Assembly (NCBI GenBank): GCA_049610985.1
Contig: JBMZAB010000005.1
Location: 12,587 to 76,586 of the forward strand
Source of the DNA: Flavobacteriales bacterium
GTDB taxonomy: Bacteria; Bacteroidota; Bacteroidia; Flavobacteriales_D; Sanyastnellaceae
DNA: 64,000 nt
Direction: 5' to 3'
Part shown: positions 9,676 to 27,280 of the stretch, one piece after another
Position numbering within the stretch: position 1 is the first letter of the stretch
Layout of the letters: every line of letters begins with the position of its first letter
Position numbers and translations under genes: made by a program
Notes under the pieces: model-generated
Databases searched by the model: none
What the model was told of the DNA's origin: nothing
The model's input: only the letters and a program-made list of their open reading frames with translations

Positions 9676-9981
9676 TCAGAGGGAGAAAATGCCTGGAATC
9701 TTGGACGCGGCCTCGTAGCGGGCAAAGATGTCGTCAGGCCCCGTCACCTTCTCGTCCACCGTCACAGCGCGGTAGTTCCCCTTGGAAGATTCCCGCACTT
9801 GGAACGCGGCCTTGGTGCCAAAAATGGCGCGAAGCGACGCCTCGTTCTCAGGCTTGGCCGGCACAATGAACTTGAACTTGAACACACACGGCCAGGTGTG
9901 GGTGTCGTTCAATTGTTGACGCAGCTGTTCGCGTTTTTCGTCGTCTTGAGGGGTCATATTTCCAGGAACTTGGGGGGACAA
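9676..9981 (-). CDS. DUF493/YbeD-like small protein
   Basis: WPCVFKFKFIV... and ...SSKGNYRAVTV... match the YbeD-family pattern. An alternative ATG lies at 9957. Confidence 0.7.
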   Translation of the reverse strand: MSPQVPGNMTPQDDEKREQLRQQLNDTHTWPCVFKFKFIVPAKPENEASLRAIFGTKAAFQVRESSKGNYRAVTVDEKVTGPDDIFARYEAASKIPGIFSL

Positions 9982-10014
9982 AAATAAGAACGGGCCGCCC
10001 GAAGGCGACCCGTT
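9976..10014 (-). terminator. rho-independent terminator of the 10044-11216 gene
   Basis: Minus-strand transcript AACGGGUCGCC-UUCG-GGCGGCCCGUU forms an 11-bp stem (one G.U) with a UUCG tetraloop, followed by CUUAUUUUUG. It starts 29 nt after the stop codon. Confidence 0.6.
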
Positions 10015-10082
10015 GACGTCCTAGGGTTTGTTGGGCAGAGCTGTCAACATGGTTGGCCAAAAGCCGCCAAGAATTGCAACAA
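9989..10082. repeat. 94-nt perfect direct repeat, copy A (last 12 codons + stop + hairpin of the 10044-11216 gene)
   Basis: Hand alignment gives 9989-10082 identical to 26951-27044, with a constant offset of 16,962 nt. Confidence 0.9.
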
Positions 10083-11216
10083 GTCTCCGGTCGACACCGA
10101 CCCATCCCCGTCCAAATCTGCAGGGCACAGGTCTTCTGCGGCCTCTGCAATGCATTGGTTCAATTCCGCATTCCATGTGGTCCCGGCACCGCAATACAAC
10201 GAAGGGTCCACGACTTCTTCGTCTGCGTCACAAATTCCATTGTCGTTGTCGTCCGATTGGCAGCTTCCTCCACAAATGCCCAAAGCATCTGCTTGGTTGC
10301 CTTCGCAATCGCAATCTCCTTCAGGAATGTCGCTGCATCCGCATTCGTACACCTCTCCCGGACCGTTGCAGATGCCGCACGCATCCAAGGCACCCACACA
10401 CGGATCCACATCGTCACAAATGCCATCCCCATCTGCATCCTCGCAACCGTCTTCTTCACATGAAATGGCTCCGCCATTGACCGACAACTCGGTGAATTCA
10501 ATCAACCCACTGGAAAATTGAAATTTGACCGACCGAGCGAAGGAGACGGCGCTGACAGTCACGTCGTTGAGTCCCAAAGACAGCGGCATCGCATTGCCAT
10601 TGTTCCAATTCCCGTTGGCCACGGTCTTCACCACACGGTAGTTCGCCCCTTCAGCGGGCAAAGCTGTAACAAAAATGCTCATGGATTGGGCGTCGGCGCT
10701 GTTTGGATCGTCAGGCGTGGTGGCAGTCACCACGTGTGGCCATGTGGCATTGGGCCCTGCATCCACCCCCGCGCAAGTCTCCATCGCGACACCATCCAAA
10801 TCGTTGGCACAAGACAGGGCGTCTCCATTGAGCGAAAGCTCAGTAAACTCCACCAGGCCGCTGTCGAATTGAAATTTGACAGACCGGGCGAAAGACACCG
10901 CACTGACCGTCACAGAGTTGACACCCAACACCAAGGGCACGGCGTTGCCATTGTTCCAGTTCCCATTGGCCACCGTCTTGACCACGCGGTAGTTCGCCCC
11001 TTCTGCGGGGAGAGAGGTGATAAAAATTTCCAGGCTTTGGGCACCGGAACTGTTCGGGTCGTCAGGTGTGGTGGCCGTCAGCACATGCGACCATGTGGAA
11101 TTGGGGCCTTCGTCGAACAAATCACACGATTCAATTGCGTTTTGGCCCCAGGCAAAAGAAGAAGCGAGGAGCAAAAAGAGCGCGAGGGTTGGAGAGGGGA
11201 TTTTCATGACACTCAA
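10044..11216 (-). CDS. secreted protein: two tandem about 106-aa unknown domains + Cys-rich TSP3-like region + dockerin-like C-terminal tail
   Basis: Signal peptide MSVMKIPSPTLALFLLLASSFAWGQ. Duplicated module ...GPN(S/A)TW.HV.TATTPDDPNS...ANYRVVKTVANGNWNNGNA...FARSVKFQF.SGL.EFTELS.NG. Also [14 protein letters not shown] and [21 protein letters not shown]. The tail is CPADLDGDGSVSTGDLLQFLAAFGQPC. Confidence 0.8.
   Translation of the reverse strand: MSVMKIPSPTLALFLLLASSFAWGQNAIESCDLFDEGPNSTWSHVLTATTPDDPNSSGAQSLEIFITSLPAEGANYRVVKTVANGNWNNGNAVPLVLGVNSVTVSAVSFARSVKFQFDSGLVEFTELSLNGDALSCANDLDGVAMETCAGVDAGPNATWPHVVTATTPDDPNSADAQSMSIFVTALPAEGANYRVVKTVANGNWNNGNAMPLSLGLNDVTVSAVSFARSVKFQFSSGLIEFTELSVNGGAISCEEDGCEDADGDGICDDVDPCVGALDACGICNGPGEVYECGCSDIPEGDCDCEGNQADALGICGGSCQSDDNDNGICDADEEVVDPSLYCGAGTTWNAELNQCIAEAAEDLCPADLDGDGSVSTGDLLQFLAAFGQPC
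10458..11126 (-). repeat. in-frame tandem domain duplication (period 351 nt / 117 aa)
   Basis: Residues 31-136 and 148-253 of the 390-aa protein align without gaps. Nucleotide identity is roughly 80% by eye. Confidence 0.85.
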
Positions 11217-11266
11217 ATGAAGGATTCGGAGAATAACTTACACAAAACCAAGCAAAAAACCAAGCG

Positions 11267-12889
11267 TCATTTCATGCCCTCTTTTCTCTCTAAGGCTTTG
11301 CGAGGCTCGCTGTACACCCTCTGGATGACCGTGTCTGTCATCAACTTCATGTCCTCAAGGGATTGATCGTCGCCAAACTCCACCTGCAACGCCTTCAGCT
11401 CCGACTTCAACCTCTGCACGAGTGTATCCGGTGCACTGGCATACATGTTGTTCAATTCATACGGATCGTCGTCAAGGTTGTACAATTCCCATTCGTCCAT
11501 GGAGTAGTAAAAGTGCATCAACTTGTAGGGACCCGATTTGATGCCGTAATGCGGTTGCACCTTGTGCCAAATGGGGTATTCGTAGTAATGGTAATAGACC
11601 GCCGTCCGCCCAGGCTCATCATCGTTGTCAAAAGCCGATTTGAAACTTTTCCCCTGCATGGTTGAAGGCACTTCCAACCCCGCCATGTCCAACAGCGTGG
11701 GACCGAAATCGATGTTCATGGCCATGTGGTCAGACACGGTTCCAGGTTCAATCACCCCGGGGCACTGAACCACGAATGGCATTTTGAACGACTCTTCGTA
11801 CATCCATCGTTTGTCGAACCAGCCATGCTCGCCCAGGTAGAAGCCTTGGTCTGAAGTGTACACCACAAGGGTGTTCTCATCGAGGCCAGTTTCTTCCAAA
11901 TGGTCCAACACGCGTCCCACGGCGCGGTCCACACCCGCCACGCAACGCAGATAGTCTTTGATGTACGTCTGGTATTTCCAATGTTTCAAATCCTCTCCCT
12001 GCAATGAATCGTGGGGCGTCCAGAATTGTCCCTTGTCTCCGTAAGCGAGCCAGCGCATGGAATCACGGCGTGTCAACCCAGGCGGCGGCACTTGCTTCAT
12101 GTCCCTGCGGTTCAGGTGCTCCCCAATTTCCATCATGTTTTCCGCTGCCGCAGGGCGTCCTGCATAGTCGTCGTTGAACGACAATGGCGTGGGGAAATCA
12201 AAATCCGCAAACAACTCGTGGTACATCGAATCCGGGCGCCAATCCCTGTGCGGGGCTTTGAACTGGTAAAGCAACATGAATGGCTTGTTGGGATCGCGTT
12301 GCTCTGTCAACCACGCGATGCAATCGTCTTCAATGACCTGTGTGGAGTGCCTGGTGGTTTCCACCAACGTGTCCACCCCATTCACACAAAATTGTGGGTT
12401 GAAGTAAGTGCCTTGACCTCCCCAATTGATGAGCACCTTGGAGTGGTCAAAGCCCTCGGGCGTCGTACCCAAGTGCCACTTGCCGATGACAGCGGTTTCG
12501 TAACCGTTTTGTTGGAACACCTTCGGAAAGGTGAGCAAGTCCCCGTTGAAATCACCTCCATCCACATTTTTGTAGAAGCCATTCACGTGGCTGAATTGAC
12601 CCGTCAGAATCGACGATCGGCTGGGTCCGCAAATGCTGTTGGTGCAGTACACCTGGTCCATTCTTGCCCCGTTCTTGGCAATCCTGTCGATGTTGGGGGT
12701 CGGGGCAAGTTTTGAAATTTCAGAACCGTAGGCACTGATGGCTTGGTAGGCATGGTCGTCCGCCATGATGTAAATGACGTTGAGCGGCTTGTCTTTGTCA
12801 CCGCGTTGAGTAGTGGATTGGCAGGAAAGCATGCTCACGGCCAGCAAACACATCGCGAGGGTTGCGAGGGGGGGCTGAATTCTTGTCAT
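11267..12889 (-). CDS. sulfatase (Cys-type; N-acetylglucosamine-6-sulfatase/arylsulfatase-like, with DUF4976-like C-terminus)
   Basis: NVIYIMADDH..., sulfatase signature C-x-P-x-R in SICGPSRSSILTG, and a C-terminal LYNLDDDPYELNN. The ATG at 12889 gives the lipoprotein-like signal MTRIQPPLATLAMCLLAVSMLSC. The track extension to 13126 would overlap the upstream gene. Confidence 0.9.
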   Translation of the reverse strand: MTRIQPPLATLAMCLLAVSMLSCQSTTQRGDKDKPLNVIYIMADDHAYQAISAYGSEISKLAPTPNIDRIAKNGARMDQVYCTNSICGPSRSSILTGQFSHVNGFYKNVDGGDFNGDLLTFPKVFQQNGYETAVIGKWHLGTTPEGFDHSKVLINWGGQGTYFNPQFCVNGVDTLVETTRHSTQVIEDDCIAWLTEQRDPNKPFMLLYQFKAPHRDWRPDSMYHELFADFDFPTPLSFNDDYAGRPAAAENMMEIGEHLNRRDMKQVPPPGLTRRDSMRWLAYGDKGQFWTPHDSLQGEDLKHWKYQTYIKDYLRCVAGVDRAVGRVLDHLEETGLDENTLVVYTSDQGFYLGEHGWFDKRWMYEESFKMPFVVQCPGVIEPGTVSDHMAMNIDFGPTLLDMAGLEVPSTMQGKSFKSAFDNDDEPGRTAVYYHYYEYPIWHKVQPHYGIKSGPYKLMHFYYSMDEWELYNLDDDPYELNNMYASAPDTLVQRLKSELKALQVEFGDDQSLEDMKLMTDTVIQRVYSEPRKALERKEGMK

Positions 12890-12903
12890 GGAAAGAGAAT
12901 TTG

Positions 12904-14190
12904 TCAATTTTTTCGGGCAGACACGAGGAAGGGCAAATTGGCGGAAGAACATTGGTCCGTGGTGTTGCATGCCCTCACAAAAACACGGTAGGCCTCTGGC
13001 TGTTGAGGGGCGGTGAACTCGACGACTGAGCCTCGGGACACCTCGAAAGAGGCCGGGACTTCCTTCAGACTCGCTTGGCGGTCTCCGCCTGTTTTGGTCG
13101 AGGTCGACTCTGGGAACAAGGCGCACGTCCAGCGCACCTCGGCCCCGTGGCCCTCAACCTCCACCTCCAATTGCAGGAGCTCTCCAGGCTGAACCACATG
13201 GTCCTTCCGCCACCCCTGGCCTTTCAATTTCAGGTCCACAATGCCGGGCGACCGGGTCGCGGGCCATTCTCCTGTCCAGGCGCGGTGCATGGCATCCACA
13301 CCGTCGGTCGGCCGGCCATCGCTCAAAAAGAGTCCATGCCAGGTTGCTGTGGACTCTTGTTTTTGGCCCCACAAAAAACAATAGCTCCCCAAGCAACGTG
13401 CGCTGTCTGAGGCAATGATTTCTTCAAACCGCCTCAAACGGGTGGCTGCTTTGACCCCGCCAGGGGGCTCTTTCTTCGCACCCCATGCTGTCTTGGGTGC
13501 TTCAAATGGGCCGTTGACCCCCCACTCCGTGACGAGGTAGGGCTTGTCCCATCCAAATCGCCGAATGTTCAAGGGCAACTTTTCGATGCTCCCGTAAGCG
13601 TTGACCCCAAGCACATCCACACTGGGGCACTGGGTTCGGACCATGTAGATTTTGGCCGGATCGATGCCGGCGAGCACCGTGGAAGTGGGATGATCGGGAT
13701 CCACCTGGTGAATAAATTCGGCCAAGGCCTCCACGGAATCCCAAACCCGGGTGTTGGTGTATTGTAAGTCCACTTCATTTCCGATTCCCCAAAGGAGCAG
13801 CGCCGGGTGGTCCTTGTATTTCAGAACTTCTTGCTTGAGCTCGGCCAATTGACCTTCCACAGCGTGCACGTCGTTGTAATCCATGCCCGTGCGCTCAGGC
13901 CTTAAATACAAACCCAGCATGACCGACATCCCGCGGGCATGCGCAGAATCCAACAAGGCCGATTTGTTCGTGCTCCAAAGCCGGATGGAATTGGCTCCCG
14001 ACGATTGAAGCAACTCGAAGTTGGCTTTGGCTCCGGCGCCCAGTACAGGGTGGGTTTCGCCGTGACGCAACAAGGTCCATCCGGAGGAATCTTTCGAAAT
14101 CGTCACTTCAGGAACCTGCGCCCTTCCCACCGTCGAGGCGGTAAAGCACCACCACGCCAAAATCACGTATGCCGTCTTCTTCTGCCTCAT
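12904..14190 (-). CDS. clan GH-A glycoside hydrolase (TIM barrel + C-terminal beta-sandwich; GH2/GH158-like)
   Basis: Signal MRQKKTAYVILAWWCFTASTVGRAQ. Acid/base context LLLWGIGNEVD and nucleophile context PYLVTEWG. The start at 14190 forms an ATGA overlap with the upstream stop; an alternative start is at 14211. Confidence 0.75.
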   Translation of the reverse strand: MRQKKTAYVILAWWCFTASTVGRAQVPEVTISKDSSGWTLLRHGETHPVLGAGAKANFELLQSSGANSIRLWSTNKSALLDSAHARGMSVMLGLYLRPERTGMDYNDVHAVEGQLAELKQEVLKYKDHPALLLWGIGNEVDLQYTNTRVWDSVEALAEFIHQVDPDHPTSTVLAGIDPAKIYMVRTQCPSVDVLGVNAYGSIEKLPLNIRRFGWDKPYLVTEWGVNGPFEAPKTAWGAKKEPPGGVKAATRLRRFEEIIASDSARCLGSYCFLWGQKQESTATWHGLFLSDGRPTDGVDAMHRAWTGEWPATRSPGIVDLKLKGQGWRKDHVVQPGELLQLEVEVEGHGAEVRWTCALFPESTSTKTGGDRQASLKEVPASFEVSRGSVVEFTAPQQPEAYRVFVRACNTTDQCSSANLPFLVSARKN

Positions 14191-15380
14191 GGTTGTCGAC
14201 GTTGAAGCCAACGTTCCACCTTGTCCGGATGACCGCGATACGCTTCCCAGGCGAAGTCGTGAAGGGTGATGTCGGTGTCATCAGGCAGGATCACACGCAC
14301 CTCCCTGGTGCCCGCCCAATTGAATTCGTCATGCCGAGGCATGCTTTTGATGGGAAGCGCACAGGACCAAATGCCCTCCTCCAATTGCACACAATGTTGG
14401 GGGGTGAGCGTCGATTGAATCTGCCGCGGCTTGCCTGTGCCCGACCAGATGGACATGCCAAGAGGCACCCATCCCCCCTCCAAGCGAAATGTCAAAGCTG
14501 AGTGGGAATGCACCTCCGTCATGTCCAACATTTCCCATCCGTTCAGTGCCACGCCGAAGGCATTCCATTCCTTGTTCGTTCCGCCTTTGTCGTGCTTCAA
14601 CACCAAAAAGGAATTTCCTCGAGATTCCGACCAAAAGACCGAGGAGGACGACGCATTTTCTTGAATGCCCCACCACAATTTGGAACGGCCCAAGTCCAGC
14701 GGAAGAGCCCCGCACACGTCTTGAGACCTGGAGGACAGCTTCTCCCCTTGATGCTCGAATGGCACAATTCGAAGGCCGTCAAGATGTACGCACCCTTCGC
14801 GCTGAAACTCGATGCGCAGCTCTTTGATGTTTTCCAAATTCACCCCCCTCGATGCCGCACGAAACGCGGACAATGGAATGTGCGCCTTTCTCCATTGGTC
14901 GTCGAAGGTTTGCCCCTCCACGTCGAGCAAATTGATCTTGGAAGTGGCTTGTCGGCCTGCGTAATCGATCAAGGCGAAAAACATCGGGATTTTGGAAGCC
15001 GTGCCCCGTTCAAGTTTGATGTGACATTGAATGGCTGCAATCTTCTCCAAGGGCTTCAAGTTTTTGCCCATGTAATTGGCCCATGGGAACCCCACCCCCA
15101 GGTACCGACAGCTGTCCGTTTGAGACCACTCCACCCGCACGTGATCGGCCCCTTCTGCAGACCCTTCTCGGACGACATCCACCCGTTTGCAAGGATGGGA
15201 TTTGTGGCCAAACATGAGGGAGTTGGCTTCGTCCAAATAAATGTCCCTGTGGACGTAGTTTAACACCCGCTCTTCCGCCGTCGGACGCAAGTCCAAGTCG
15301 TACAATGGCATGTCTTGCATGGTGCCACATCCCAGCAGCAATCCGGCAACCAACCCCAAAGTCAACCGCATTCGCATCAT
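14187..15380 (-). CDS. lipoprotein with two CBM-like beta-sandwich regions (putative surface glycan-binding protein)
   Basis: Lipobox MMRMRLTLGLVAGLLLGC. Two segments resemble non-catalytic carbohydrate-binding modules (e.g. ...NIKELRIEFQREGCVHLDGLRIVPF). This rests on compositional and pattern inference only. Confidence 0.65.
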   Translation of the reverse strand: MMRMRLTLGLVAGLLLGCGTMQDMPLYDLDLRPTAEERVLNYVHRDIYLDEANSLMFGHKSHPCKRVDVVREGSAEGADHVRVEWSQTDSCRYLGVGFPWANYMGKNLKPLEKIAAIQCHIKLERGTASKIPMFFALIDYAGRQATSKINLLDVEGQTFDDQWRKAHIPLSAFRAASRGVNLENIKELRIEFQREGCVHLDGLRIVPFEHQGEKLSSRSQDVCGALPLDLGRSKLWWGIQENASSSSVFWSESRGNSFLVLKHDKGGTNKEWNAFGVALNGWEMLDMTEVHSHSALTFRLEGGWVPLGMSIWSGTGKPRQIQSTLTPQHCVQLEEGIWSCALPIKSMPRHDEFNWAGTREVRVILPDDTDITLHDFAWEAYRGHPDKVERWLQRRQP

Positions 15381-16411
15381 TCTTGCTCCAAAAGTGGGGC
15401 ACCTTCCGTGAACATGACGTAGTCCAAGTCGGCACGGGCTTCAATGTCTCCGTTCTCAGGACAATTTCCGCTGTTGAAGGGACAAGCCTGCAGTCCGAGA
15501 CGGATGCCTCGGATTTGGCTCGGTTCACGAACGTTGTTGCCCCCTTCACTTTTCACCTCGAACTCCGAATACGACACGGACACATACCGCCAACCCTCCC
15601 AATCCACCGGCCGAACTTGATGCTTGTACACTTCCATGCCCGTTGCAAAAATGTCCGCAGCATTGTTGGAGGTGTTGTCGTTGAATGGGGCGTCAGACTC
15701 AGAAAGCAAGATGTTGACGTATTGATCGGACGCAAATTCCCCGTTCAGCCCGCCAAGCACACCCAGATTCAGGAAGAACCCTTCGGCATCGGTCGTCACG
15801 GAGGTCAAATCAAGCGGAATGTCGATGTATCCGAGGCTCCAGTCCCAATTCACCCGTCCCCCCATTTTAAAGTACTGTCCCCCTTGGAGCGCTTCATCTT
15901 GGGCGAGGTCGAACGTCATGTTTCCACCGTCTTGGTGCCACACCAACGCCCCATTTGGCAATCCGTCGTCAAAATCCGCCACAGGCAACCCTTCGTACAC
16001 CTTTTCGCCTTGAATCACCAAGTCTTGCTGGAACACCTCAGGCTCCCCTTCCACTGTCAACTCAACCTCGCAGGATTCGACCAAGAAAAAGGGAACGTCA
16101 TCGCAGTTGCCGTGCCACACCACCTGTTCAGGCAGGAGTTCCCTTGAAAATCCAGACAAGGTTTTCACACTCCCTGATTCCGTCCCCACAACGCGGACTG
16201 TCCATTCGACGGGCTTGGAGAATTCGCACGCAAATCCAACAACGTCGCCCACCGAAAAGTCTGGGGTGTGGGTTGTCAGACTCAGTGAGTCCAGCACCTC
16301 AAACTGGCCAAACAGCTCGTCAAGGGATGGCCCCTCAGAATCCGGCCTGTCACACCCGATTGCCAAGAGACACATCAAGACTGAAGCCCACCACATTCTT
16401 GTCTTTCTCAT
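15377..16411 (-). CDS. lipoprotein, Ig-like + CBM-like region (putative surface glycan-binding protein)
   Basis: Lipobox MRKTRMWWASVLMCLLAIGC. 344 aa. ATGA overlaps with both neighbouring genes. Confidence 0.65.
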   Translation of the reverse strand: MRKTRMWWASVLMCLLAIGCDRPDSEGPSLDELFGQFEVLDSLSLTTHTPDFSVGDVVGFACEFSKPVEWTVRVVGTESGSVKTLSGFSRELLPEQVVWHGNCDDVPFFLVESCEVELTVEGEPEVFQQDLVIQGEKVYEGLPVADFDDGLPNGALVWHQDGGNMTFDLAQDEALQGGQYFKMGGRVNWDWSLGYIDIPLDLTSVTTDAEGFFLNLGVLGGLNGEFASDQYVNILLSESDAPFNDNTSNNAADIFATGMEVYKHQVRPVDWEGWRYVSVSYSEFEVKSEGGNNVREPSQIRGIRLGLQACPFNSGNCPENGDIEARADLDYVMFTEGAPLLEQE

Positions 16412-18129
16412 AGTCTTGCAGATATCACGATGAACACTTGATTTGCCCTCACCTCATCCCCCTCTCCTGTCTTTCCTTGTCCCCAGGCGTTCCATTGGAC
16501 ACAGGCAGAGATGTCCTTGGCCAGGATGTGCTTGATTCCCAAGGACGCCATCCAAGCTTGGGTGTCCAACTCCACCCGTTCAAAGTTGTACAAGGTTCCA
16601 AAACCGTCTCGAAGCGCCAAGTATTCGTGGCCCTGCCCTACCGCATGACGCCCTGACCCCTCCAACCATGTGCCAGGCCACACTTCAAATCCGGCCGACA
16701 TCGTCAGGTTGGACGTCAGCAATTCAATGGCCTCCAACGCACTTCCTCCACGTTGGGTTTGTTGAAGCCTTTCAAACACAGACACTCGCCAAGGGTGAGA
16801 CGTCGTGGTGGACGTCCATTCTGCCCCCAACCCCAACGCCTTGAATGTTCGGAGTTGCGTTGTGCCTTGACCGGTCAACTCCGAGTGCATCCCCAGATCC
16901 AACTTCATGGCCAATGCATTCTGCTGTTTCTCCACCGCCAATTCGCCCCCACGTCGGTTGGGGGTCGCATGGCCAAAGGGCAAAATGTTGTCGAACAACG
17001 GGGCCACCGCCATCAACGTGGGGGACAAACTTTGGTTGGCACGAGTCACGTCTGTCAGAAGGTCAAAAAGCGATGCTGATCGAGTCGTCGACCCTGCATC
17101 CACGGTGGGAAATACAGCGGGCTCGGGGAGCTCCGCGAAGTTGTAACGCTTGGATTGCGACCCTGCACTTCTGAAAAAAGGATCCACTTCCCGGTATGAA
17201 GCATGCAGGGTCCAGGAAGAGTCTTGGCTTGTCACATCCAGATTCAAGCCGGCGAACCCACCGCGCACAGAAAAGGCCACGCTGTCCAAATCTGGCGCGT
17301 TCACATCGCGTATCCTCCAGCCCCTTCGTGAGGCTCCAGCTTCCGCGGTCCACCTCATGTGGAGTCCAGGTGTTGACCCTTTCTTGTGGATCAGACCGTG
17401 CACCACTGGGTTCAACACGTTGTGTTTTGCGGTGCCTGATTGGGGGAGGTCGGCCATCACCGAGTGGTGGAATTCGCCTGACCATCCGTCCTGTCCAGTG
17501 ACTGCGGATGTCACGCCGGCCAACACGCGATCAGGCACGTAAGATGTTTCAGAGAGCTGTCTTGACCCTCGCGGCCGTGTGGCGTAACCGTCCAACACGA
17601 GACGCTCCACCCAGCGATCTCCCAAGAACACGGCGTTGGCATGTGCACCTTGCAACCGCCAGCGGTTGTCCTCAAAAAAATTCTCGTAAGCCACCAGGTT
17701 CTTTTGGGCCTCAAACGCCTTGCCCCACGGATCGAAAACTTCTCCGTCGTCGGCATGCAACGTGAATCGGGACTGGTTCAAGTAGATGTCACCCACATTG
17801 AACCTCACCTTGCCACCCAACACCCCAGAAACGCGCAATTGCCTGACGTCGACTTGGGTGCCTTGACCGAAAAACCCTCCAAATTCATTCAGGACCCTGA
17901 CCTGGGCGAACACCTCCACGTTGGGGGTGGGATTGACGTGGGGGTTCAAATCAAGCAGATTCCATCCAGCCGTCACCGAAGGCTCAGGCTGGTTCACCAG
18001 GGTGTTCGAAGTGAACCAGGTTCTGGCGAACCCATCCAGCCAATACTGGGGCTCTCCACCCTCCTCACCCTGTCCCCAGGCCACATTCCCGAGGCACAAC
18101 AAGAGGATGGCAGACAATTGATGTTTCAT
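16408..18129 (-). CDS. predicted outer-membrane beta-barrel protein (unknown family)
   Basis: Sec signal MKHQLSAILLLCLGNVAWGQ. 573 aa of alternating amphipathic short strands rich in G/N/T/S/aromatics. Shares the motif ..QSR[LF]T[VL].. in register with the upstream barrel gene. Confidence 0.6.
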   Translation of the reverse strand: MKHQLSAILLLCLGNVAWGQGEEGGEPQYWLDGFARTWFTSNTLVNQPEPSVTAGWNLLDLNPHVNPTPNVEVFAQVRVLNEFGGFFGQGTQVDVRQLRVSGVLGGKVRFNVGDIYLNQSRFTLHADDGEVFDPWGKAFEAQKNLVAYENFFEDNRWRLQGAHANAVFLGDRWVERLVLDGYATRPRGSRQLSETSYVPDRVLAGVTSAVTGQDGWSGEFHHSVMADLPQSGTAKHNVLNPVVHGLIHKKGSTPGLHMRWTAEAGASRRGWRIRDVNAPDLDSVAFSVRGGFAGLNLDVTSQDSSWTLHASYREVDPFFRSAGSQSKRYNFAELPEPAVFPTVDAGSTTRSASLFDLLTDVTRANQSLSPTLMAVAPLFDNILPFGHATPNRRGGELAVEKQQNALAMKLDLGMHSELTGQGTTQLRTFKALGLGAEWTSTTTSHPWRVSVFERLQQTQRGGSALEAIELLTSNLTMSAGFEVWPGTWLEGSGRHAVGQGHEYLALRDGFGTLYNFERVELDTQAWMASLGIKHILAKDISACVQWNAWGQGKTGEGDEVRANQVFIVISARL

Positions 18130-18130
18130 G

Positions 18131-20071: not shown

Positions 20072-20127
20072 GGCTCAACTTACTCCATATTGTTGAACGA
20101 CTGCGGCATGGGCCCGTCAAGAATGCG

Positions 20128-21153
20128 TCAATTCTGAGGTGCGAGGGGTACGGAATCTCGAACACACCGGAATCCGACATGGCTAGCGCCCGTGTCTTCT
20201 GCCACAGGCATTCGCGCAGTCACCCTGTAACTGGAGCAGTATCCAGGATGGCAGAGGAAAGAACCACCCCTCATGACGCGTTTGGGGACATGGTCTTCCA
20301 TGGGGTCAAACGAAACTCCCGGCCCCCTTGGATTCAAAACAACCTGACCGGAACGACTTGCATAAGTGTAAGGGTCGTACCGATCGCTGCACAATTCCCA
20401 CACGTTGCCTCCCAAGTCGTGGATTCCGAGGCTGTTTGCTGGGTACGACATGACTGGAGCCGTCTTGACGTGGCCATCCAATTTGGCGTTGGAGACTGGA
20501 AATTGCCCTTCCCAGATGTTGCATTTCACCTCACCCTGCCCTGGAGCTTCGTTGCCCCAAGGAAACCTGACTTGTTCCCCACGAGCGGTGGCTGCAAACT
20601 CCCACTCCGCTTCGGTGGGCAAGCGCGCCCCCCTCCATGTCGCATAAGCCACGGCGTCCTCCAACGCGATGTGCACCACAGGATGATCCAACACCTCTTG
20701 ATACGTTGAACCTGGGCCTTCAGGGCATTTCCAGCTGGCCGACTCTGTCCACTTCCACCACTGCCCAGGGTCCCTCAGACTGAAAATCGCCTCAGGAGAA
20801 AAGAACGTCATGGAACCAGGGTCGTGGGAACCTTGCGGGGTGTCAACTGGTCGCTCGGCCACGGTCACGTACCCCGTGCTTTCCACAAATTCTGCGAACT
20901 GGGCGTTGGTCACCTCATGACGGTCCATGTGAAAGCCATCAACCCTCACAAGGTGTCTTGGCTGTTCACGAGGCAACGCATCCGAATCCCCTGAATGCGC
21001 CCCCATTTGGAATGCTCCCCCTTCCACCCAAACCATGGACGCATGACCTGCTGCAGGCTGGGGAGATGCCAGCTTCTTCTCATGATTCTTCGCAGCTGGC
21101 TGACATCCCAAAACAACGACCAGCCCAAGAATGCTCCTCCAAGATGTATTCAT
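20128..21153 (-). CDS. formylglycine-generating enzyme (SUMF1/FGE family)
   Basis: MVWVEGGAFQMGA..., ...VTNAQFAEFV..., ...GGNVWELCSDRY... and ...RVMRGGSFLCHPGYCSSYRVTAR are canonical FGE-sulfatase domain blocks. The start overlaps the upstream stop by 1 nt (TGATG). Confidence 0.9.
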   Translation of the reverse strand: MNTSWRSILGLVVVLGCQPAAKNHEKKLASPQPAAGHASMVWVEGGAFQMGAHSGDSDALPREQPRHLVRVDGFHMDRHEVTNAQFAEFVESTGYVTVAERPVDTPQGSHDPGSMTFFSPEAIFSLRDPGQWWKWTESASWKCPEGPGSTYQEVLDHPVVHIALEDAVAYATWRGARLPTEAEWEFAATARGEQVRFPWGNEAPGQGEVKCNIWEGQFPVSNAKLDGHVKTAPVMSYPANSLGIHDLGGNVWELCSDRYDPYTYASRSGQVVLNPRGPGVSFDPMEDHVPKRVMRGGSFLCHPGYCSSYRVTARMPVAEDTGASHVGFRCVRDSVPLAPQN

Positions 21154-22565
21154 CAGTGCGTGGATTCAAAAGAGCGAAACGGGTCGTTTTTCCAGGTGAT
21201 CCCATCTTGCCACCGAGGCGCTTTCACTTGCTTCAGATAATCGAGCAAGTCCGACTCCATGTCGTGGGCAAGCTCCGGCAACTTGAGCGCGAGGTTTGTC
21301 GTCTCTTCCAAGTCCTTCTCCAAGTCAAACAACCGCACCTCGCCGTTGTCGTGGAACTTCAGCAGTTTGTAATGGCCAGAGATCCAAGCCGAGTGTGCAC
21401 GGTTGAGGGCGATTCGGTTTTGGTATGGCACATGAAAGGCCATGCCCCCATTCGGCCGCACCACATCCTTGGCTTGCACTCCTCGCAGCACGTGGACAAA
21501 ACTACCCCCATCCAAGCTGTCAGGCGCCTCACTCCACCCTCCCGCCAATTCAGCCACGGTGGGCAAGAGGTCCGCTCCCCAGACACAGGCTGACGTCGCC
21601 ACGTTCGCAGCAACACCAGGACCTGACACCACAAACGGCACCCTGAGCCCACCTTCCATGGCGTCCCATTTCCCCCTGCTCAAGGGCTCATTGAGGCTCT
21701 TCTCATAATGCTTGGCCCCAGGAATGTTTGGGACACCCCCGTTGTCGGACAGATAGATCATGTAGGTGTTGTCGTCCAACCCCAATTCATGAACCTTCGC
21801 CAAGAGTAGGCCTAGACTCGCATCCAAGTCCATGGTCATGCCGGCCATTCCTTGGTGACGGTGTCGCCGGCCGGGCTCCGTCCTTCCCACCTTGCCTAAA
21901 GAAGCTGGTGTTGTTTCAATGTTGGTGTGCACCGCATAATGGGAAATCTGTAGGAAAAACGGACGGGCCAAGGCATGACAAGAGTCCACGAATCTCATTG
22001 CACGGTCTGTCAACTCAAAGACACGCTTGGGGTCAGAAACCACCTCGGTCTCCCATTGACTTCTGTCGTTGACGAACCCGCCATCCACATTTTTCGTCGG
22101 TCCGTCGCTGACGTCGTACCCCACCTCCTCAGGGGTGCCACCCATGCCCCATTTTCCAAAATGTGCGGTCTGGTACGTTGAGTCGATGGTCTGAAGGGCC
22201 TTGGGCAAACTCACCCAGTCCCCGTGAGGAATGTGAGAGGTGTTCATCCCCACCCGAATCAACTGGATTCGGGCTGGAGATTTCCCGAATTGAATGCTGT
22301 AACGCGACGGGGCACACACGGGTGCCGACGCCCTCGCGTTGGAGAACCTCATCCCGCTTTGGGCCAACGAATCCAGCCACGGCGTCTGGTGAAAGTCACT
22401 TGCCGATTCTGGCAGCCCAGGAACCATTTCCACCGACGTCCCATTCCACGCCTGGTCGTCCACCAGCACGACGACAAAGTTTGGCGGGGCCTTCTGACAC
22501 GTGCGCTCATCCGAGGCACACGAGGCACAAAAAACCAAGCACAACATCCACACGTGCATCCTCAT
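21153..22565 (-). CDS. sulfatase (Cys-type, arylsulfatase A-like)
   Basis: Signal MRMHVWMLCLVFCASC, then NFVVVLVDDQ... and the C-x-P-x-R signature in APVCAPSRYSIQFG. Confidence 0.9.
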   Translation of the reverse strand: MRMHVWMLCLVFCASCASDERTCQKAPPNFVVVLVDDQAWNGTSVEMVPGLPESASDFHQTPWLDSLAQSGMRFSNARASAPVCAPSRYSIQFGKSPARIQLIRVGMNTSHIPHGDWVSLPKALQTIDSTYQTAHFGKWGMGGTPEEVGYDVSDGPTKNVDGGFVNDRSQWETEVVSDPKRVFELTDRAMRFVDSCHALARPFFLQISHYAVHTNIETTPASLGKVGRTEPGRRHRHQGMAGMTMDLDASLGLLLAKVHELGLDDNTYMIYLSDNGGVPNIPGAKHYEKSLNEPLSRGKWDAMEGGLRVPFVVSGPGVAANVATSACVWGADLLPTVAELAGGWSEAPDSLDGGSFVHVLRGVQAKDVVRPNGGMAFHVPYQNRIALNRAHSAWISGHYKLLKFHDNGEVRLFDLEKDLEETTNLALKLPELAHDMESDLLDYLKQVKAPRWQDGITWKNDPFRSFESTH

Positions 22566-24082
22566 GGCTCTGACGACTCCAGTGATGGGCGTTTCAGAAC
22601 CGGCGCCACGCGGGGCAAGGGCCTTGCCAAGGGGTTCACCAGGCCCACACCCGCCGGCACCACCTTGTGGGAAGAATCCATTTGAACCAACACCTGTTGA
22701 AGAGAGTCCAGAATCGGGCCCATGTCCAGTTGACCCGCCAAGTTGTCCAACTCAGAGGGATCTGCCTGATGGTCGTACAACTCCCATCCCAGCTCGCCTT
22801 CGTTTCCCCATCGAGTGATGCGGTGACGCGCTGTGCGAAGAGAGGATCCCTTCCTCCACTCCGTGTACGCACCCGGTGAAACTTGGTCTTCTGTCTCGCG
22901 GGGCTGCAGCACATTTCTGCCCGGAAGTTGTGCAGGAGGAACCAACCCAGCCCATGCGGCGACCGTGGGATAAAGGTCCACCAGTTCCACAGGTGCGAAT
23001 TCCGCGGCATGAGAATTCAATTCGTCTGGGTTTCTGAGGATGAAGGGCACCCTCGTTGCCTCTTCAAACAACGTTTGCTTCTGCCAATGGCCATGTTCTC
23101 CGAGGTGATAGCCATGGTCGCTCAAAAACACGACCAGCGTGTTGTCGTCAAGTCCCGTCTCTTTCAGCGCCCCGAGCACCCTGCCCACCTGTGCGTCCAC
23201 AAAGGACACGGACGCGCGATACGCCTGAATCACCATCTGCGCAGTGTCATGCGCCAAGTCCACTTGGACTCGGTTGCCCCGAATGGAGCGCTTGGACGGG
23301 GTGGGCAACGCCGACAAGGTTGAATCGGCGTAATCGGGAACCACCATGTCCCCCTTGGGATGCATGTCAAAAAAGGAAGAAGGCGCGACAAATGGCGTGT
23401 GGGGCCTGAAGAATCCCGCCGCCAAAAAGAAGGGTTGCTCGGTTTGCGCATGCGCACGGAGCTTCTCAATGGTCAACGAAGCCACCATCCCGTCGGTGTG
23501 CTCTTCCTCGTCTCCTTCGGAACTCAACCAACTCAAAGTCCCACCGAACTTTCCTTCGACCAGAGAGTGAATCAAGTGCTCCTCGCGCTTGTCTCGTCCT
23601 GATGGGTTGTACGTTTCATCCCACGACGGATTGTCGTCTTGGCCCGACGTGCCGATTTCTCCAGGGTTGTCGTAATGGAAAAGCTTGCCCACCCGGGTCA
23701 CGTGGTAACCGTGCTGCCGGAACAATTGAGGCAGGGTCACCACCTCGGGCATGGCGTCCCGAAGCATGACGCGATTCTCTCGAACGCCAGACTGAGAAGG
23801 GTAAAGTCCAGTCAGAAAACTTGTGCGAGACGGACCACAGAGCGGGTATTGACAATGGGCTTGGTCGAAGCGGATCCCTTCAGAGGCAAGCGCGTCGATA
23901 TTTGGGGTCGATGCCAAGGAATCTCCATAACATCCCAGCATGCAGTTCAAATCGTCCGCAACCAACAGCAGGACATTCCGTGTGGCATGGAGATGCTCCT
24001 TCTCACTGGGAGCGCATGAAACCATGAATCCCAACGCCACGACCGACAGCAACCTCCACGCCGATTGAGGAGCAAACCTCAC
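22562..24082 (-). CDS. sulfatase (Cys-type, iduronate-2-sulfatase-like)
   Basis: NVLLLVADDLN... and YPLCGPSRTSFLTG. The GTG at 24082 gives the lipoprotein-like signal VRFAPQSAWRLLSVVALGFMVSC, 10 nt after the upstream stop. The track start (24187; ATG at 24184) would overlap the upstream gene by about 90 nt. Confidence 0.85.
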   Translation of the reverse strand: MRFAPQSAWRLLSVVALGFMVSCAPSEKEHLHATRNVLLLVADDLNCMLGCYGDSLASTPNIDALASEGIRFDQAHCQYPLCGPSRTSFLTGLYPSQSGVRENRVMLRDAMPEVVTLPQLFRQHGYHVTRVGKLFHYDNPGEIGTSGQDDNPSWDETYNPSGRDKREEHLIHSLVEGKFGGTLSWLSSEGDEEEHTDGMVASLTIEKLRAHAQTEQPFFLAAGFFRPHTPFVAPSSFFDMHPKGDMVVPDYADSTLSALPTPSKRSIRGNRVQVDLAHDTAQMVIQAYRASVSFVDAQVGRVLGALKETGLDDNTLVVFLSDHGYHLGEHGHWQKQTLFEEATRVPFILRNPDELNSHAAEFAPVELVDLYPTVAAWAGLVPPAQLPGRNVLQPRETEDQVSPGAYTEWRKGSSLRTARHRITRWGNEGELGWELYDHQADPSELDNLAGQLDMGPILDSLQQVLVQMDSSHKVVPAGVGLVNPLARPLPRVAPVLKRPSLESSEP

Positions 24083-24092
24083 AATGCCTGGC

Positions 24093-25046
24093 TCAAGGAC
24101 GATGAACGATGAAGCGATGGACTTGGGTAATTCCTCCCAGGTGCGTCTCCAACAAATACGTGCCTGGCAACCATCCAGAAACATCAATGGCCGTGGAGGT
24201 CGACTGAGAATGTTCAGTCAAGCACACCTTGCCCTGGGCATCCAACACCCGAAATCGGCCAAGGGCTAGGCTGGACGTCACCCACAATTCCATGGATGCA
24301 GGGTTGGGCGCCATGCCGATGGACAAGGAGGACTGAGCGTCTTGCACGTCGTCCACTTCCCCGGCGCAAAGGCAATCGGCTGTGATCATGTCGTTGATTG
24401 TGTCGTCGTTTCCGTCATCGCACGAATCCCCCACCAAGACACACATGCCGTTGTCCACTTCTGCATAGGGCGCGTAGTTGCACGCCTCCGCATTGGTGCA
24501 ACCCACAGAATTGTAAACCACCATTTGTTTCCAGTAGATGGTGTCTCCATTTGCAACTCCCCATGGACCGCGCCAACCAAAGCGCCCCACTGTCCCTTCA
24601 AACGTGCCACTCCCACTGTTGGGGGGGCTTGTCAAATCCAAGGTGTACGTCTGGAATCCCTCCATCTCTGTGTCCACAGGAACATTCCAATGACACATGA
24701 ACGCGTTGGTTTCTGGTGCGTAGGCGAACAGACGCGCGTTGGGGTTGCCCGACGTGGTGGGGTTTCTCAACGTGATTTGAACGCGGTCGTACATGCCGGC
24801 GTCGATGCCCAAGCTTTCATTGACTGTGCCACTGCGCATGACCGGGGTCGTGTTGAATGCCCGCATGGCCATGGCCTCGGGCTGCTCAATGAGGTTGCAA
24901 CCGAGGTTGGACTCACTGGCGGGAACCCACCCTTCCTTGGAGTCTTGCCAATCGTAGACAATCTGCGCCGTGGCGCACGTCGGGGCAATCACAAACGACA
25001 ACAACAAACAGACGATGCAGGAGGAAATGCGCAAGGAGGTGGTCAT
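24093..25046 (-). CDS. T9SS C-terminal-sorting-domain protein with unknown N-terminal domain and one ACNY module
   Basis: Signal MTTSLRISSCIVCLLLSFVIAPTCATAQ and module GCTNAEACNYAPYAEVDNGMC. The last about 75 aa (24096-24320: ...MAPNPASMELWV...LDAQGKV...GTYLLE...) match the Por_Secre_tail pattern. Confidence 0.75.
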   Translation of the reverse strand: MTTSLRISSCIVCLLLSFVIAPTCATAQIVYDWQDSKEGWVPASESNLGCNLIEQPEAMAMRAFNTTPVMRSGTVNESLGIDAGMYDRVQITLRNPTTSGNPNARLFAYAPETNAFMCHWNVPVDTEMEGFQTYTLDLTSPPNSGSGTFEGTVGRFGWRGPWGVANGDTIYWKQMVVYNSVGCTNAEACNYAPYAEVDNGMCVLVGDSCDDGNDDTINDMITADCLCAGEVDDVQDAQSSLSIGMAPNPASMELWVTSSLALGRFRVLDAQGKVCLTEHSQSTSTAIDVSGWLPGTYLLETHLGGITQVHRFIVHRP

Positions 25047-25098
25047 AACTCTTTCAATGGATTGATTCACAGGCAACGTCCCAAGGTACATTAGAAGC

Positions 25099-26943
25099 AT
25101 GAGTCTTCTCCGCACTCCAAGTGCAACCTGCTGCTCCATGTTGTTGAGGCTTGGCGCCTTTTGGGTTGGCATGGTTGGATGCATCCTCTCCTGCCACGCC
25201 CAGCAAACCTACCACGTGTCGCCCACAGGCGACGATGCGCTCTCGGGATTGTCTCCAACGAATGCCTGGCAATCCTTGGACGCGCTGAATGCGCAAACGT
25301 TCTTGCCAGGCGACAGCATCTTGTTTGAGCGGGGCGGAATTTGGCATGGCATGCTGCACCTTAAAGGGTCGGGGGCTGAAGGAGCGGCACTCGTCGTTGG
25401 AGCCTATGGAGACAACTCCCAGCCCAGGCCCATTCTGGACGGGGACGGATACCAAGCGTCCCTTTTGATTTACAACGACAGCCACATTGTTGTCCAAGAC
25501 ATGGTTTTCACCAACCAAACATCCCATCTTGATGACAATGGTGAGGTGAAGAAATTGCCCACGTTTTTGGGCGAAACCAACGATTGGGGGTCGGGCAAGA
25601 ACGTGCGATTTGGCATCAAGGTCGTTGCCGACGCGGCCACTGTGAAGGACCTTGTGTTCCGAGATGTCAAGCTTCACGACATCTACCCCACCCCAACCAA
25701 CCCAGACAACGCTCACTTGGGTTACGGCATCAAGCTTGAAAGTCGATCCGACACTTTGAACGGGCAAATTCACACCATCGACGACGTGTTGGTGACCGGC
25801 GTTGAATTCACACGGACTGGGCATTATGGCATGTGGATCAAACCGCTTGGCCTCGCGGGGAACAACAGCATCAAGCACGAAAACATCCACATCACCGGGT
25901 GCACCTTCACGCACACAGGTGGCTCAGGGTTCGTGCCCAACCGATCGAGACATGTGGTCGTGGAACACTGCCTGTTCAACCACGCAGGCTCGAGCATCGA
26001 CGATCGCATGTGGGCGCGTGGAAGCGGCACATGGCCCTTCAAATGTGAGCGGGTCGTCATCCAACACAACCGCTTGATGAATGCCCACGGACCCCAAGAC
26101 TCGTACAGTGCGCACATCGACTACGGCTGCAAAGACGTTGTCATTCAATACAACCTGAGCTTCAACAACGAGGGCGGGTTCGCCGAGATTTTGGGGGACA
26201 ACATCAATTGTGGATACAGGTACAACATCAGTGTCAACGACGGACACCGGGAGGACCCAGACGGACAACCTTGGAACAAGAAGGGCAAAATCTTCTGGCT
26301 TTCGACGTTTTGCGGGAACAACCAAGTTCGATGCCCCAGCCAGGGCTCCTTCTTCTACAACAACACGGTGTACGTCGACGAGTCCATCAATCCTGAAATC
26401 TACGTATGGCCAGATGCGGGCGATGTGCTGATTTGCAACAACCTGGTGTCCATGGCTGCGGGTGGCGAGGTCCTTCCGACTTTGCTTGAAGACGAAGGCA
26501 ATGTGTTCAACGTGAACCACAATCTATTTCACCCTCCAGCGCGCATCGACCTTGACAACGACCTCCTGACGAACGCCTCGTTTCTGTCGCCCCAGTTCTT
26601 GGCCACAAGCGACGCCCCCGTCCAGTCAGAACTGAACTACCAACCGTCTCCTGCCAGCCCCACCTTGGGCAACGGCGCGTTGATTTCCGGAAGTGATGAC
26701 CCTTGGGACTTTCGCCACAACAATGGAGGTCAAGATTTTTTTGGCCTGCCCGTCCCCGACACTACTGCCCCGACCATCGGTGCCTTGCAACGCAGCTTGT
26801 GCGCCGAAAGTACCTTTTGGAATGCCAACACGAATCAGTGTGAGCCTCACCCTGAACCATGTCCGGAGGATTTGGATGGAGATGGCACGGTCAGTGTGTT
26901 CGACCTGCTGATGCTACTGACCGCCCTGCCCACAACATGCTGA
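25099..26943 (+). CDS. right-handed parallel beta-helix protein (possible polysaccharide lyase/hydrolase) with dockerin-like C-terminal tail
   Basis: N-terminus ...QQTYHVSPTGDDALSGLSPTNAWQSLDALNAQTFLPGDSILFERGGIWHG is typical of beta-helix carbohydrate-active proteins, with repeated ...N..V... coils. The tail is CAESTFWNANTNQCEPHPEPCPEDLDGDGTVSVFDLLMLLTALPTTC. Confidence 0.8.
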   Translation: MSLLRTPSATCCSMLLRLGAFWVGMVGCILSCHAQQTYHVSPTGDDALSGLSPTNAWQSLDALNAQTFLPGDSILFERGGIWHGMLHLKGSGAEGAALVVGAYGDNSQPRPILDGDGYQASLLIYNDSHIVVQDMVFTNQTSHLDDNGEVKKLPTFLGETNDWGSGKNVRFGIKVVADAATVKDLVFRDVKLHDIYPTPTNPDNAHLGYGIKLESRSDTLNGQIHTIDDVLVTGVEFTRTGHYGMWIKPLGLAGNNSIKHENIHITGCTFTHTGGSGFVPNRSRHVVVEHCLFNHAGSSIDDRMWARGSGTWPFKCERVVIQHNRLMNAHGPQDSYSAHIDYGCKDVVIQYNLSFNNEGGFAEILGDNINCGYRYNISVNDGHREDPDGQPWNKKGKIFWLSTFCGNNQVRCPSQGSFFYNNTVYVDESINPEIYVWPDAGDVLICNNLVSMAAGGEVLPTLLEDEGNVFNVNHNLFHPPARIDLDNDLLTNASFLSPQFLATSDAPVQSELNYQPSPASPTLGNGALISGSDDPWDFRHNNGGQDFFGLPVPDTTAPTIGALQRSLCAESTFWNANTNQCEPHPEPCPEDLDGDGTVSVFDLLMLLTALPTTC

Positions 26944-26950
26944 ATGCGAA

Positions 26951-27044
26951 AACGGGCCGCCCGAAGGCGACCCGTTGACGTCCTAGGGTTTGTTGGGCAG
27001 AGCTGTCAACATGGTTGGCCAAAAGCCGCCAAGAATTGCAACAA
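26951..27044. repeat. 94-nt perfect direct repeat, copy B
   Basis: Identical to 9989-10082. It begins 8 nt after the stop of the 25099-26943 gene. Confidence 0.9.
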
Positions 27045-27056
27045 ATCCAGATTCAA
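27006..27056 (-). pseudogene. orphan 3' remnant of a dockerin-tail gene (LNLDLLQFLAAFGQPC*)
   Basis: The minus-strand frame is closed by an in-frame TGA at 27057-27059, so only 16 codons plus the stop remain. The last 12 codons and stop are nucleotide-identical to the end of the 10044-11216 gene. Confidence 0.6.
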
Positions 27057-27180
27057 TCAACCATGATTTATTCAAGCGGACTTGACCTCAATGGGCGAGC
27101 TGTCAAGTTGGCAGGACAGAGCAAGCATCTTCCGCCTGATGCTGCGCTCACCAGATTGAACGAAAGCCGTCGTCAACGCC

Positions 27181-27214
27181 AAAAAAAATCCCGACCTCAC
27201 TGGCCGGGATTTTT
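27181..27214 (-). terminator. rho-independent terminator of the 2379-aa gene
   Basis: Minus strand AUCCCGGCC-AGU-GAGGUCGGGAU forms an 8-9 bp stem including a G.U pair, followed by U8. It lies 67 nt after the stop codon at 27281-27283. Confidence 0.65.
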
Positions 27215-27280
27215 CATCCTTTCGTCTAGCCTTCGCTGAGCGAGGTCAAGATTCAAGAATTCAACACTCGCTCGCTGCGC

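Follow-up and report, generated by a model that had tools for sequence, protein, structure and literature searches.

A terminator hairpin as the putative joint of a variable sulfatase island in marine Flavobacteriales

Concerted evolution by gene conversion between bacterial repeats is a familiar property of the rRNA operons and of tufA/tufB. Gene conversion also acts between dispersed repeats of M. tuberculosis (PMC12046097), and direct repeats are known to flank loci that can be lost: in Salmonella Typhimurium, 113-bp perfect direct repeats (attL/attR) enclose the deletable wzy locus, and natural deletants retain one of them (PMC12074656). Here, we analyzed a 64,000-nucleotide stretch of the genome of a Flavobacteriales bacterium (GenBank assembly GCA_049610985.1, contig JBMZAB010000005.1, positions 12,587 to 76,586 of the forward strand; hereafter the window), in which two direct repeats bracket a block of genes with a sulfatase cluster, located between the conserved genes for a DUF493 protein and ffh. 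The locus belongs to an already known type, a flexible island flanked by direct repeats that evolve in concert. It stands out in that a terminator hairpin serves as the joint.

As at Salmonella wzy, perfect direct repeats of roughly 100 bp surround a dispensable block related to surface or glycan functions, exactly one repeat is left in natural deletion variants, no dedicated recombinase is known, and RecA-dependent recombination above the minimal efficient processing segment (MEPS) is proposed. Unlike at wzy, the conserved joint here is only a 26-nt terminator hairpin, the 94-nt form of the repeat being specific to one lineage; the block measures 17 kb rather than 2.6 kb, and its deletion is known from sequence comparison between sister species and not from events within cultures. 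With the flexible (additive) islands of marine bacteria (PMC4033161, PMC4898812), the locus shares a constant slot among core genes, variable content, mosaic strains and a polysaccharide- or surface-related cargo. It differs from these islands in having no adjoining tRNA and no integrase (ARAGORN and Pfam), in having two copies of one terminator as its edges, and in the adjacent giant gene, which appears to swap 3' domains at the same joint. The described cases of concerted evolution have in common with this locus that paralogous copies within a genome are closer to each other than orthologous copies between strains, and that derived states are common to the copies. Here, in contrast, the acceptor is a non-coding 71-nt orphaned gene end together with a hairpin, the putative tract is shorter than 95 nt, and the partner is the 3' end of a functional gene 17 kb away. 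Finally, a GC-rich hairpin that lies past stop codons and is repeated in the genome recalls repetitive extragenic palindromic (REP) sequences, bacterial interspersed mosaic elements (BIMEs) and miniature inverted-repeat transposable elements (MITEs), but the hairpin described here has three copies in 2.3 Mb, follows dockerin-like-tail genes only, carries a T-tract and shows neither terminal inverted repeats nor target duplications.

The initial annotation of the window had claimed that perfect 94-nt direct repeats bracket 16,962 bp, and this was borne out. Copy 1 (9989-10082) and copy 2 (26951-27044) lie in the same orientation at a spacing of 16,962 bp and are identical at 94/94 positions; the match extends to 96/97 (through 10085/27047), with a single A/G difference between 10083 and 27045. 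Both edges of the repeat are sharp, the adjoining 20-200 nt being only 18-36% identical, the level of random sequence. The repeat pair is real and far beyond chance. A search of the whole 2.32-Mb, 91-contig assembly revealed no third full 94-nt copy. The first 26 nt of the repeat are present once more (G000:C20:3979-4004), which gives three hairpin copies in the genome, and a looser hairpin pattern matched five genomic sites, three of them the repeat-core hairpin. The 94-mer does not, then, recur at many unrelated loci, and a REP/MITE-like dispersed element is ruled out by copy number (the 94-mer twice and the hairpin three times in 2.32 Mb). A difference in base composition between the inside and the outside of the block, also raised in the initial annotation, did not materialize in that form. 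A zone of lower G+C (about 0.55 vs 0.60) extends over 10-35 kb and takes in the giant gene; it is not delimited by the repeats, and an island defined by composition was rejected.

The first 26 nt of each copy form a hairpin (hp1 in copy 1, hp2 in copy 2; Table 1) that we predict to be the minus-strand intrinsic terminator of a family of dockerin-like-tail genes. The repeats as a whole appear to be paralogous 3' modules of such genes. The stem is more stable on the minus strand than on the plus strand (-21.0 vs -15.6 kcal/mol). A terminator scan scored copy 1 as terminator-like, with 11 pairs and the tail CTTATTTTTG; in copy 2 the stem is intact, the tail is only TTTT, and the scan gave no terminator call. 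The third hairpin copy, on contig C20, lies 3' of another dockerin-like-tail gene, with a 27-nt spacer and a T7 run, and in the relatives that were searched the hairpin was found at few loci (one to three seen), again after dockerin-like tails. The stem reads GGGTCGCC/GGCGGCCC in the clade of the window vs GGGCCACC/GGTGGCCC in G010, G023, G020, G001 and G016, and compensatory changes of this kind are expected of a functional terminator. Moreover, within any one genome hp1 and hp2 have a common stem variant, and this variant differs between clades, a result that points to homogenization of the hairpins over longer times.

Of the two copies, copy 1 alone marks a true gene end. It comprises, on the minus strand, 12 codons up to 10082, a TGA stop (10044-10046), a spacer (10015-10043) and the hairpin (9989-10014), which together form the terminus of a gene for a secreted protein with a dockerin-like tail (T); the DUF493 gene starts 30 nt farther along, and T orthologues adjoin DUF493 in every block-bearing relative. 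Copy 2 sits between the stop of the plus-strand beta-helix gene B (26943), with hp2 starting 7 nt past it, and the terminator of a giant surface-protein gene (27181-27210; gene end 27281). Because the tail frame of copy 2 is shut by a TGA at 27057-27059, five codons upstream of the repeat, and no long minus-strand open reading frame (ORF) ends at copy 2, this copy is an orphaned gene end and not the terminus of a gene. The earlier description of each copy as the end of a dockerin-tail gene therefore holds for copy 1, with its stop, 12 codons, spacer and UUCG hairpin, and fails for copy 2.

To place the repeats in context, we compared the locus in 24 congeneric species and in about 15 metagenome contigs. 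Between the left anchor, argS-DUF493, and the right anchor, ffh-folD, four forms were found. In the empty form (type a: G017, G009, G019, G020, G001, G021, G016 and G003), DUF493 is followed by one hairpin and by a giant gene whose last coding part is the dockerin-like tail, closed by a stop. The other three forms are filled. In type a' (L062, which is 94% identical to the window, G006 and G023), hp2 is followed by the plain tail of the giant gene; in type b (L048, L049, L058, L059, L061, G014 and G010), a T-like domain is fused behind this tail; and in type c (the window, L037, L050 and L051), a 71-nt orphan and a 230-nt patch are followed by a DUF285-FISUMP lectin fused behind the tail. The distance between DUF493 and ffh is 6-8 kb in the five empty-site species in which both genes lie on one contig, vs 24.6 kb here, and the empty G017, G009 and G019 are 87-92% identical to the window.

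The joint of the empty form could be resolved to within the hairpin. In L062, hp1 equals hp2 and the two are 16,962 bp apart; they are likewise identical at 26/26 positions in L048, L061 and G014. On the left of the single hairpin of G017, G009 and G019, 190-192/200 nt are identical to the left flank of L062 hp1, and on its right 190-196/200 nt are identical to the right flank of L062 hp2, compared with 47-58/200 for the wrong flank pairings. By these matches, taking the block together with one hairpin (exactly 16,962 bp) out of the filled L062 allele gives the empty allele, and the joint falls within the 26 identical bases. Relatives that lack the block and keep one repeat copy, which the initial annotation had envisaged, thus exist in G017, G009 and G019, but the copy that they keep is the 26-nt hairpin and not the 94-mer. 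No empty allele with the full 94-mer was found among the relatives compared, and genus-wide only the 26-nt hairpin is common to both sides, so the implied 94-nt joint was not borne out.

The giant gene has three alternative C-termini among close relatives, and the hp2 joint also appears to mark the site at which this surface-protein gene swaps C-terminal domains. In type b contigs L048, L058 and L061, the T-like domain, built of the 106-aa repeat, continues in frame after the dockerin-like tail of the giant protein.

We then considered the age of the 94-nt identity. The orphan junction (27047/27048) is common to the window, to L037 (a JGI metagenome contig, 94.7% identical) and to the TARA scaffolds L050 and L051 (about 93%). 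Its presence in strains that have diverged by 5-7% implies that the orphan predates their divergence and is no artefact of this metagenome-assembled genome (MAG). In L050 and L051, where both copies are covered, copy 1 and copy 2 differ at 5/97 positions. At positions 29, 32, 33 and 95 of the repeat, copy 2 of L037, L050 and L051 reads T, G, T and A; the outgroup copy 1 alleles (G014, L058 and L047) read T, G, C and A; copy 1 in the clade of the window reads C, C, C and G; and copy 2 of the window reads C, C, C and A. The window copy 2 therefore has the copy-1 states at 29, 32 and 33 and retains the copy-2 state at 95. Since three parallel mutations to the copy-1 states are not credible, these data fit conversion of copy 2 by copy 1, in a tract that would begin in or beside the hairpin and stop before position 95. 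An A at position 59, found in all copy 2s and in some of the copy 1s, might stem from transfer in the opposite direction. Together, these patterns indicate that the perfect 94-nt identity seen here arose by gene conversion onto an old orphan and not by a recent event.

The initial annotation had offered a recent event and ongoing gene conversion side by side. Only the latter gains support, from the derived states that are common to the two window copies and absent from copy 2 of three other assemblies. If this genome had recently undergone a duplication or a cassette-like insertion, with the 94-nt repeat as its fresh scar, perfect identity beside unrelated flanks would be accounted for, but such an event would leave unexplained the orphan junction in L037, L050 and L051, the five differences between the copies of the latter two, and the block at the same site in species that are only about 70-80% identical. 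We regard a fresh scar, and with it the proposed cassette-like insertion, as extremely improbable.

An assembly artefact could also produce identical copies, either by threading copy-1 k-mers into copy 2 in a mixed-strain MAG or through a chimeric contig. The assembly is a MAG of 91 contigs, and identity between the window and L048 is 100% over 9.5-13 kb but only 87-96% in other parts, as mixing of strains might yield. Nevertheless, the same architecture is reproduced in three assemblies from other samples. Further evidence comes from a Logan contig (k=31, run SRR27204696) that matches 22138-26980 at 100% and stops within the repeat, 4 nt beyond hp2; in its final k-mer, the base before the hairpin that is specific to the copy-2 side is linked to a C of copy-1 type at position 29. 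In addition, a mis-join in the assembly graph predicts chimeras of left flank, repeat and 27048 or of B, repeat and T, not a copy 2 that carries copy-1 single-nucleotide variants. An artefact is therefore very hard to credit.

These observations can be combined into one account, which we consider probable though well short of certain, of paralogous 3' modules, hairpin recombination, an old orphan and conversion. In this account, hp1 would terminate T, and hp2 would originally have been the terminator of the giant surface-protein gene. The two hairpins would bracket an old 17-kb sulfatase cluster that constitutes a flexible island in the DUF493-ffh interval. The filled and empty states would be interconverted by homologous recombination in the 26-bp hairpin, the block being looped out or, in reverse, integrated; the product of loss would be a single hairpin with its left flank from hp1 and its right flank from hp2. 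In the lineage of the window, the 3' end of the giant gene would have been rebuilt by fusion to the DUF285-FISUMP lectin, a 71-nt T-type orphan beside hp2 would have lengthened the repeat, and conversion of copy 2 by copy 1 would have made the orphan identical to the real end of T.

We infer that a crossover in the hairpin, and not allelic replacement via the flanks, produced the empty state, and that deletion of the block would depend on RecA. In E. coli, MEPS values are 23-27 bp for the RecBC pathway and 44-90 bp for the RecF pathway (PMC12074656). Measured against these thresholds, which come from E. coli and not from Flavobacteriales, the 26-bp core and the 94-bp repeat both reach the minimum. 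As 94 bp lie above the RecF range and 26 bp at the RecBC minimum, the block is expected to be less stable in type c strains, and it should be more prone to deletion here than in relatives that have only 26 bp in common.

The distribution of the block bears on whether it is gained or lost. Of the species compared, 9 carry it and 11 lack it. An orthologue of Sulf1, the first sulfatase gene of the block, adjoins DUF493 in G004, G010, G023, G005, G002, G006 and G013, while G014 has T and B, and the block occurs at the same site even at the interspecies identities of about 70-80% noted above. On the ffh tree, the pattern of presence and absence needs at least 5 changes, and the tree does not distinguish gain from loss. 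Across species, Sulf1 is 77-93% identical in amino acids vs 76-88% in nucleotides for ffh, that is, the block genes diverge in step with core genes. G015 (L068, G015:C17, 2826-3140), the sister of the block-bearing G013, lacks the block and retains the giant-gene hairpin, 36 nt of the B side, two T fragments and T's own diverged terminator before DUF493. These remnants show that a filled ancestor lost the block by a separate, untidy illegitimate deletion, and that orphaned T ends normally arise as by-products when this locus undergoes deletion. Loss is favored by the G015 remnants together with the parallel divergence of Sulf1 and ffh.

A trio of Sulf1, T and B-like genes was also observed outside the genus, in L104-L108 (other Flavobacteriales/Crocinitomicaceae MAGs), with the B-like gene downstream of T and on the same strand. 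The gene set is thus older than its present arrangement.

Exchange between strains is a further source of variation. In 500-nt windows over 6500-27000, identity to L048, L050, L058, L059 and L037 is mosaic, with blocks of 100% beside blocks of 83-92%, which indicates frequent homologous exchange within this population, as judged by sequence alignment.

Several observations weigh against recombination between the hairpins as the account of this locus. The 26-bp core lies at the very edge of efficient RecA recombination. The endpoints of the G015 deletion fall outside the hairpins, so a hairpin crossover is not the sole route to loss, and hp1 has diverged from hp2 in G006 and G013, so that this route is not open to every genome. 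As soon as a filled and an empty allele coexist, they must also be spread by exchange via the long flanking homology, and this could explain most of the presence and absence. All ten listed contigs with an identical DUF493 protein (10/10) carry T and the block. The 71-nt orphan may have come from either of two events. A second T-type gene may have been destroyed at the fusion of the lectin cassette, leaving the orphan as its relic, by analogy with the G015 remnant; alternatively, the orphan may be a patch for which T was the template, through template switching that was primed in the hairpin. No intact second T-type gene next to hp2 was found in the 24 genus genomes, in the about 15 contigs or at 64 loci from a scan with T.

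Some of these observations would be expected if the hairpins were just the terminators of two genes with paralogous tails that stand 17 kb apart, the block varying by illegitimate deletion and by allelic replacement via the argS-DUF493 and giant gene-ffh flanks. The G015 endpoints, the unlike hairpins of G006 and G013 and the mosaic identity of strains all suit this explanation, as does the third identical hairpin, which lies 3' of an unrelated tail gene on C20. However, the allele of G017, G009 and G019 is exactly that of L062 minus one hairpin and the block, with zero bases gained or lost, a precision that illegitimate deletion would reach only by chance. Furthermore, the flanking hairpins are identical within genomes and different between clades, which argues that they interact. 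We therefore judge it unlikely, if worth keeping in view, that the hairpins act as terminators alone.

Recombination between the hairpins need not be left to general homology, and we asked how well a dedicated enzyme would fit. Identical structured repeats lie exactly at the edges of the block, the empty site retains one of them, and the hairpin is conserved genus-wide, as might be seen if it were the target of a site- or hairpin-specific recombinase (attC-like, IS200/IS605-like or Xer-like) and the block a mobilizable cassette. A novel enzyme is conceivable, given that three block proteins have no Pfam match. Against this, no integrase, transposase or relaxase Pfam domain was detected in the 17 ORFs in and around the block, and ARAGORN found no tRNA in the window. 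The hairpin, moreover, has only 3 copies per genome, always just past the stops of tail genes, and the block consists of 12 genes in both orientations. A recombinase target consequently seems very improbable.

A broader proposal is that tail, spacer and hairpin form a portable joint selected genus-wide, a cassette system that works without a recombinase, in which whole gene blocks and the C-termini of the giant protein are exchanged where dockerin-like-tail genes end, and the joints are kept identical within each lineage by conversion. At this one locus, the C-terminal alternatives are the plain tail, the T-like domain and the DUF285-FISUMP lectin. We consider such a selected system doubtful.

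Table 1. Features of the repeat-flanked block and its neighborhood (positions in the window).
Feature	Position	Strand	Description
DUF493 gene	9676..9957	-	Conserved left anchor; Pfam PF04359
hp1	9989..10014	-	Predicted terminator hairpin of T, core of copy 1; 11-bp stem, UUCG loop, T-rich tail
Rest of copy 1	10015..10085	-	29-nt spacer, TGA stop, last 12-13 T codons
T	10044..11216	-	Tail gene; 390-aa secreted product with duplicated 106-aa domain, Cys-rich region and dockerin-like tail (ORF translation)
Sulfatase cluster	11267..25184	-	Ten genes: 3 sulfatases, formylglycine-generating enzyme (FGE), GH2-like, CBM30-like, three of unknown function, protein with type IX secretion system (T9SS) tail (Pfam)
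B	25138..26943	+	Beta-helix gene with dockerin-like tail, convergent on hp2; Pfam PF13229
hp2	26951..26976	-	Same hairpin, core of copy 2; predicted giant-gene terminator in relatives
Orphan T-type 3' end	26977..27047	-	Spacer, stop, 13 codons; read directly; junction also in L037, L050, L051
Intergenic patch	27048..27280	-	Repeated element 27057-27175, and hairpin/T8 terminator 27181-27210 for the fused lectin end
DUF285 + Fib_succ_major extension	27281..28957	-	3' extension of giant gene (Pfam); type c strains only
Former C-terminal tail of giant gene	28958..29050	-	Dockerin-like tail, now internal; terminal in relatives
ffh	34611..35942	+	Conserved right anchor (Pfam)

The content of the block agrees with that claimed in the initial annotation, a tail gene, a ten-gene sulfatase cluster and a beta-helix gene, as judged by ORFs and Pfam matches (Table 1). 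The product of B was called as 601 aa in all strains compared. On the left, an identical DUF493 protein was read on 23 metagenome contigs, and the gene is syntenic in 22/24 genus members. On the right, the DUF285/Fib_succ_major extension of the giant gene is absent in G017, G009, G019, G006, L062 and L048, in which homology resumes at 28958; in relatives, the dockerin-like tail of the giant gene is followed directly by the stop, a 29-nt spacer and the hairpin.

The locus offers a base-pair-resolved case of gain or loss of a polysaccharide-degradation cluster among very close uncultured marine Flavobacteriales. With its three sulfatases, and beside a giant protein that bears a fucose lectin, the cluster probably decides by its presence whether a strain uses sulfated glycans. 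The locus also illustrates that a perfect repeat in a MAG can be old and kept identical by gene conversion instead of being a fresh scar. For methods, it calls for caution, as short terminator repeats break and shape the assemblies of such variable loci. Among the contigs compared, the long-read '_pilon' contigs L044 and L045 have many genes fragmented relative to short-read assemblies; these split genes are most likely residual long-read indel errors and not pseudogenes.

The patch between the orphan and the lectin end contains two further repeated sequences. No Rfam family was matched at gathering score in the whole window, the 27057-27175 element included, and an E-value scan of 26800-27500 returned two weak sub-threshold matches (E 0.2-0.5) at 27181-27266. 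The region 27048-27180 has no convincing fold (z -0.8 and -2.0). Copies of the 27057-27175 element occur at G000:C24:31414-31514 (83%) and G000:C29:27905-27975 (about 90%), the C24 copy 38 nt upstream of a 404-aa outer-membrane-like gene, and the element could be a small repeat, or could act as a promoter or leader. The second sequence, 27174-27310, comprises the last 10 Fib_succ_major codons and the hairpin-T8 terminator; it recurs with 80-87% identity at dozens of loci in the genus and appears to be a second conserved module of gene end plus terminator.

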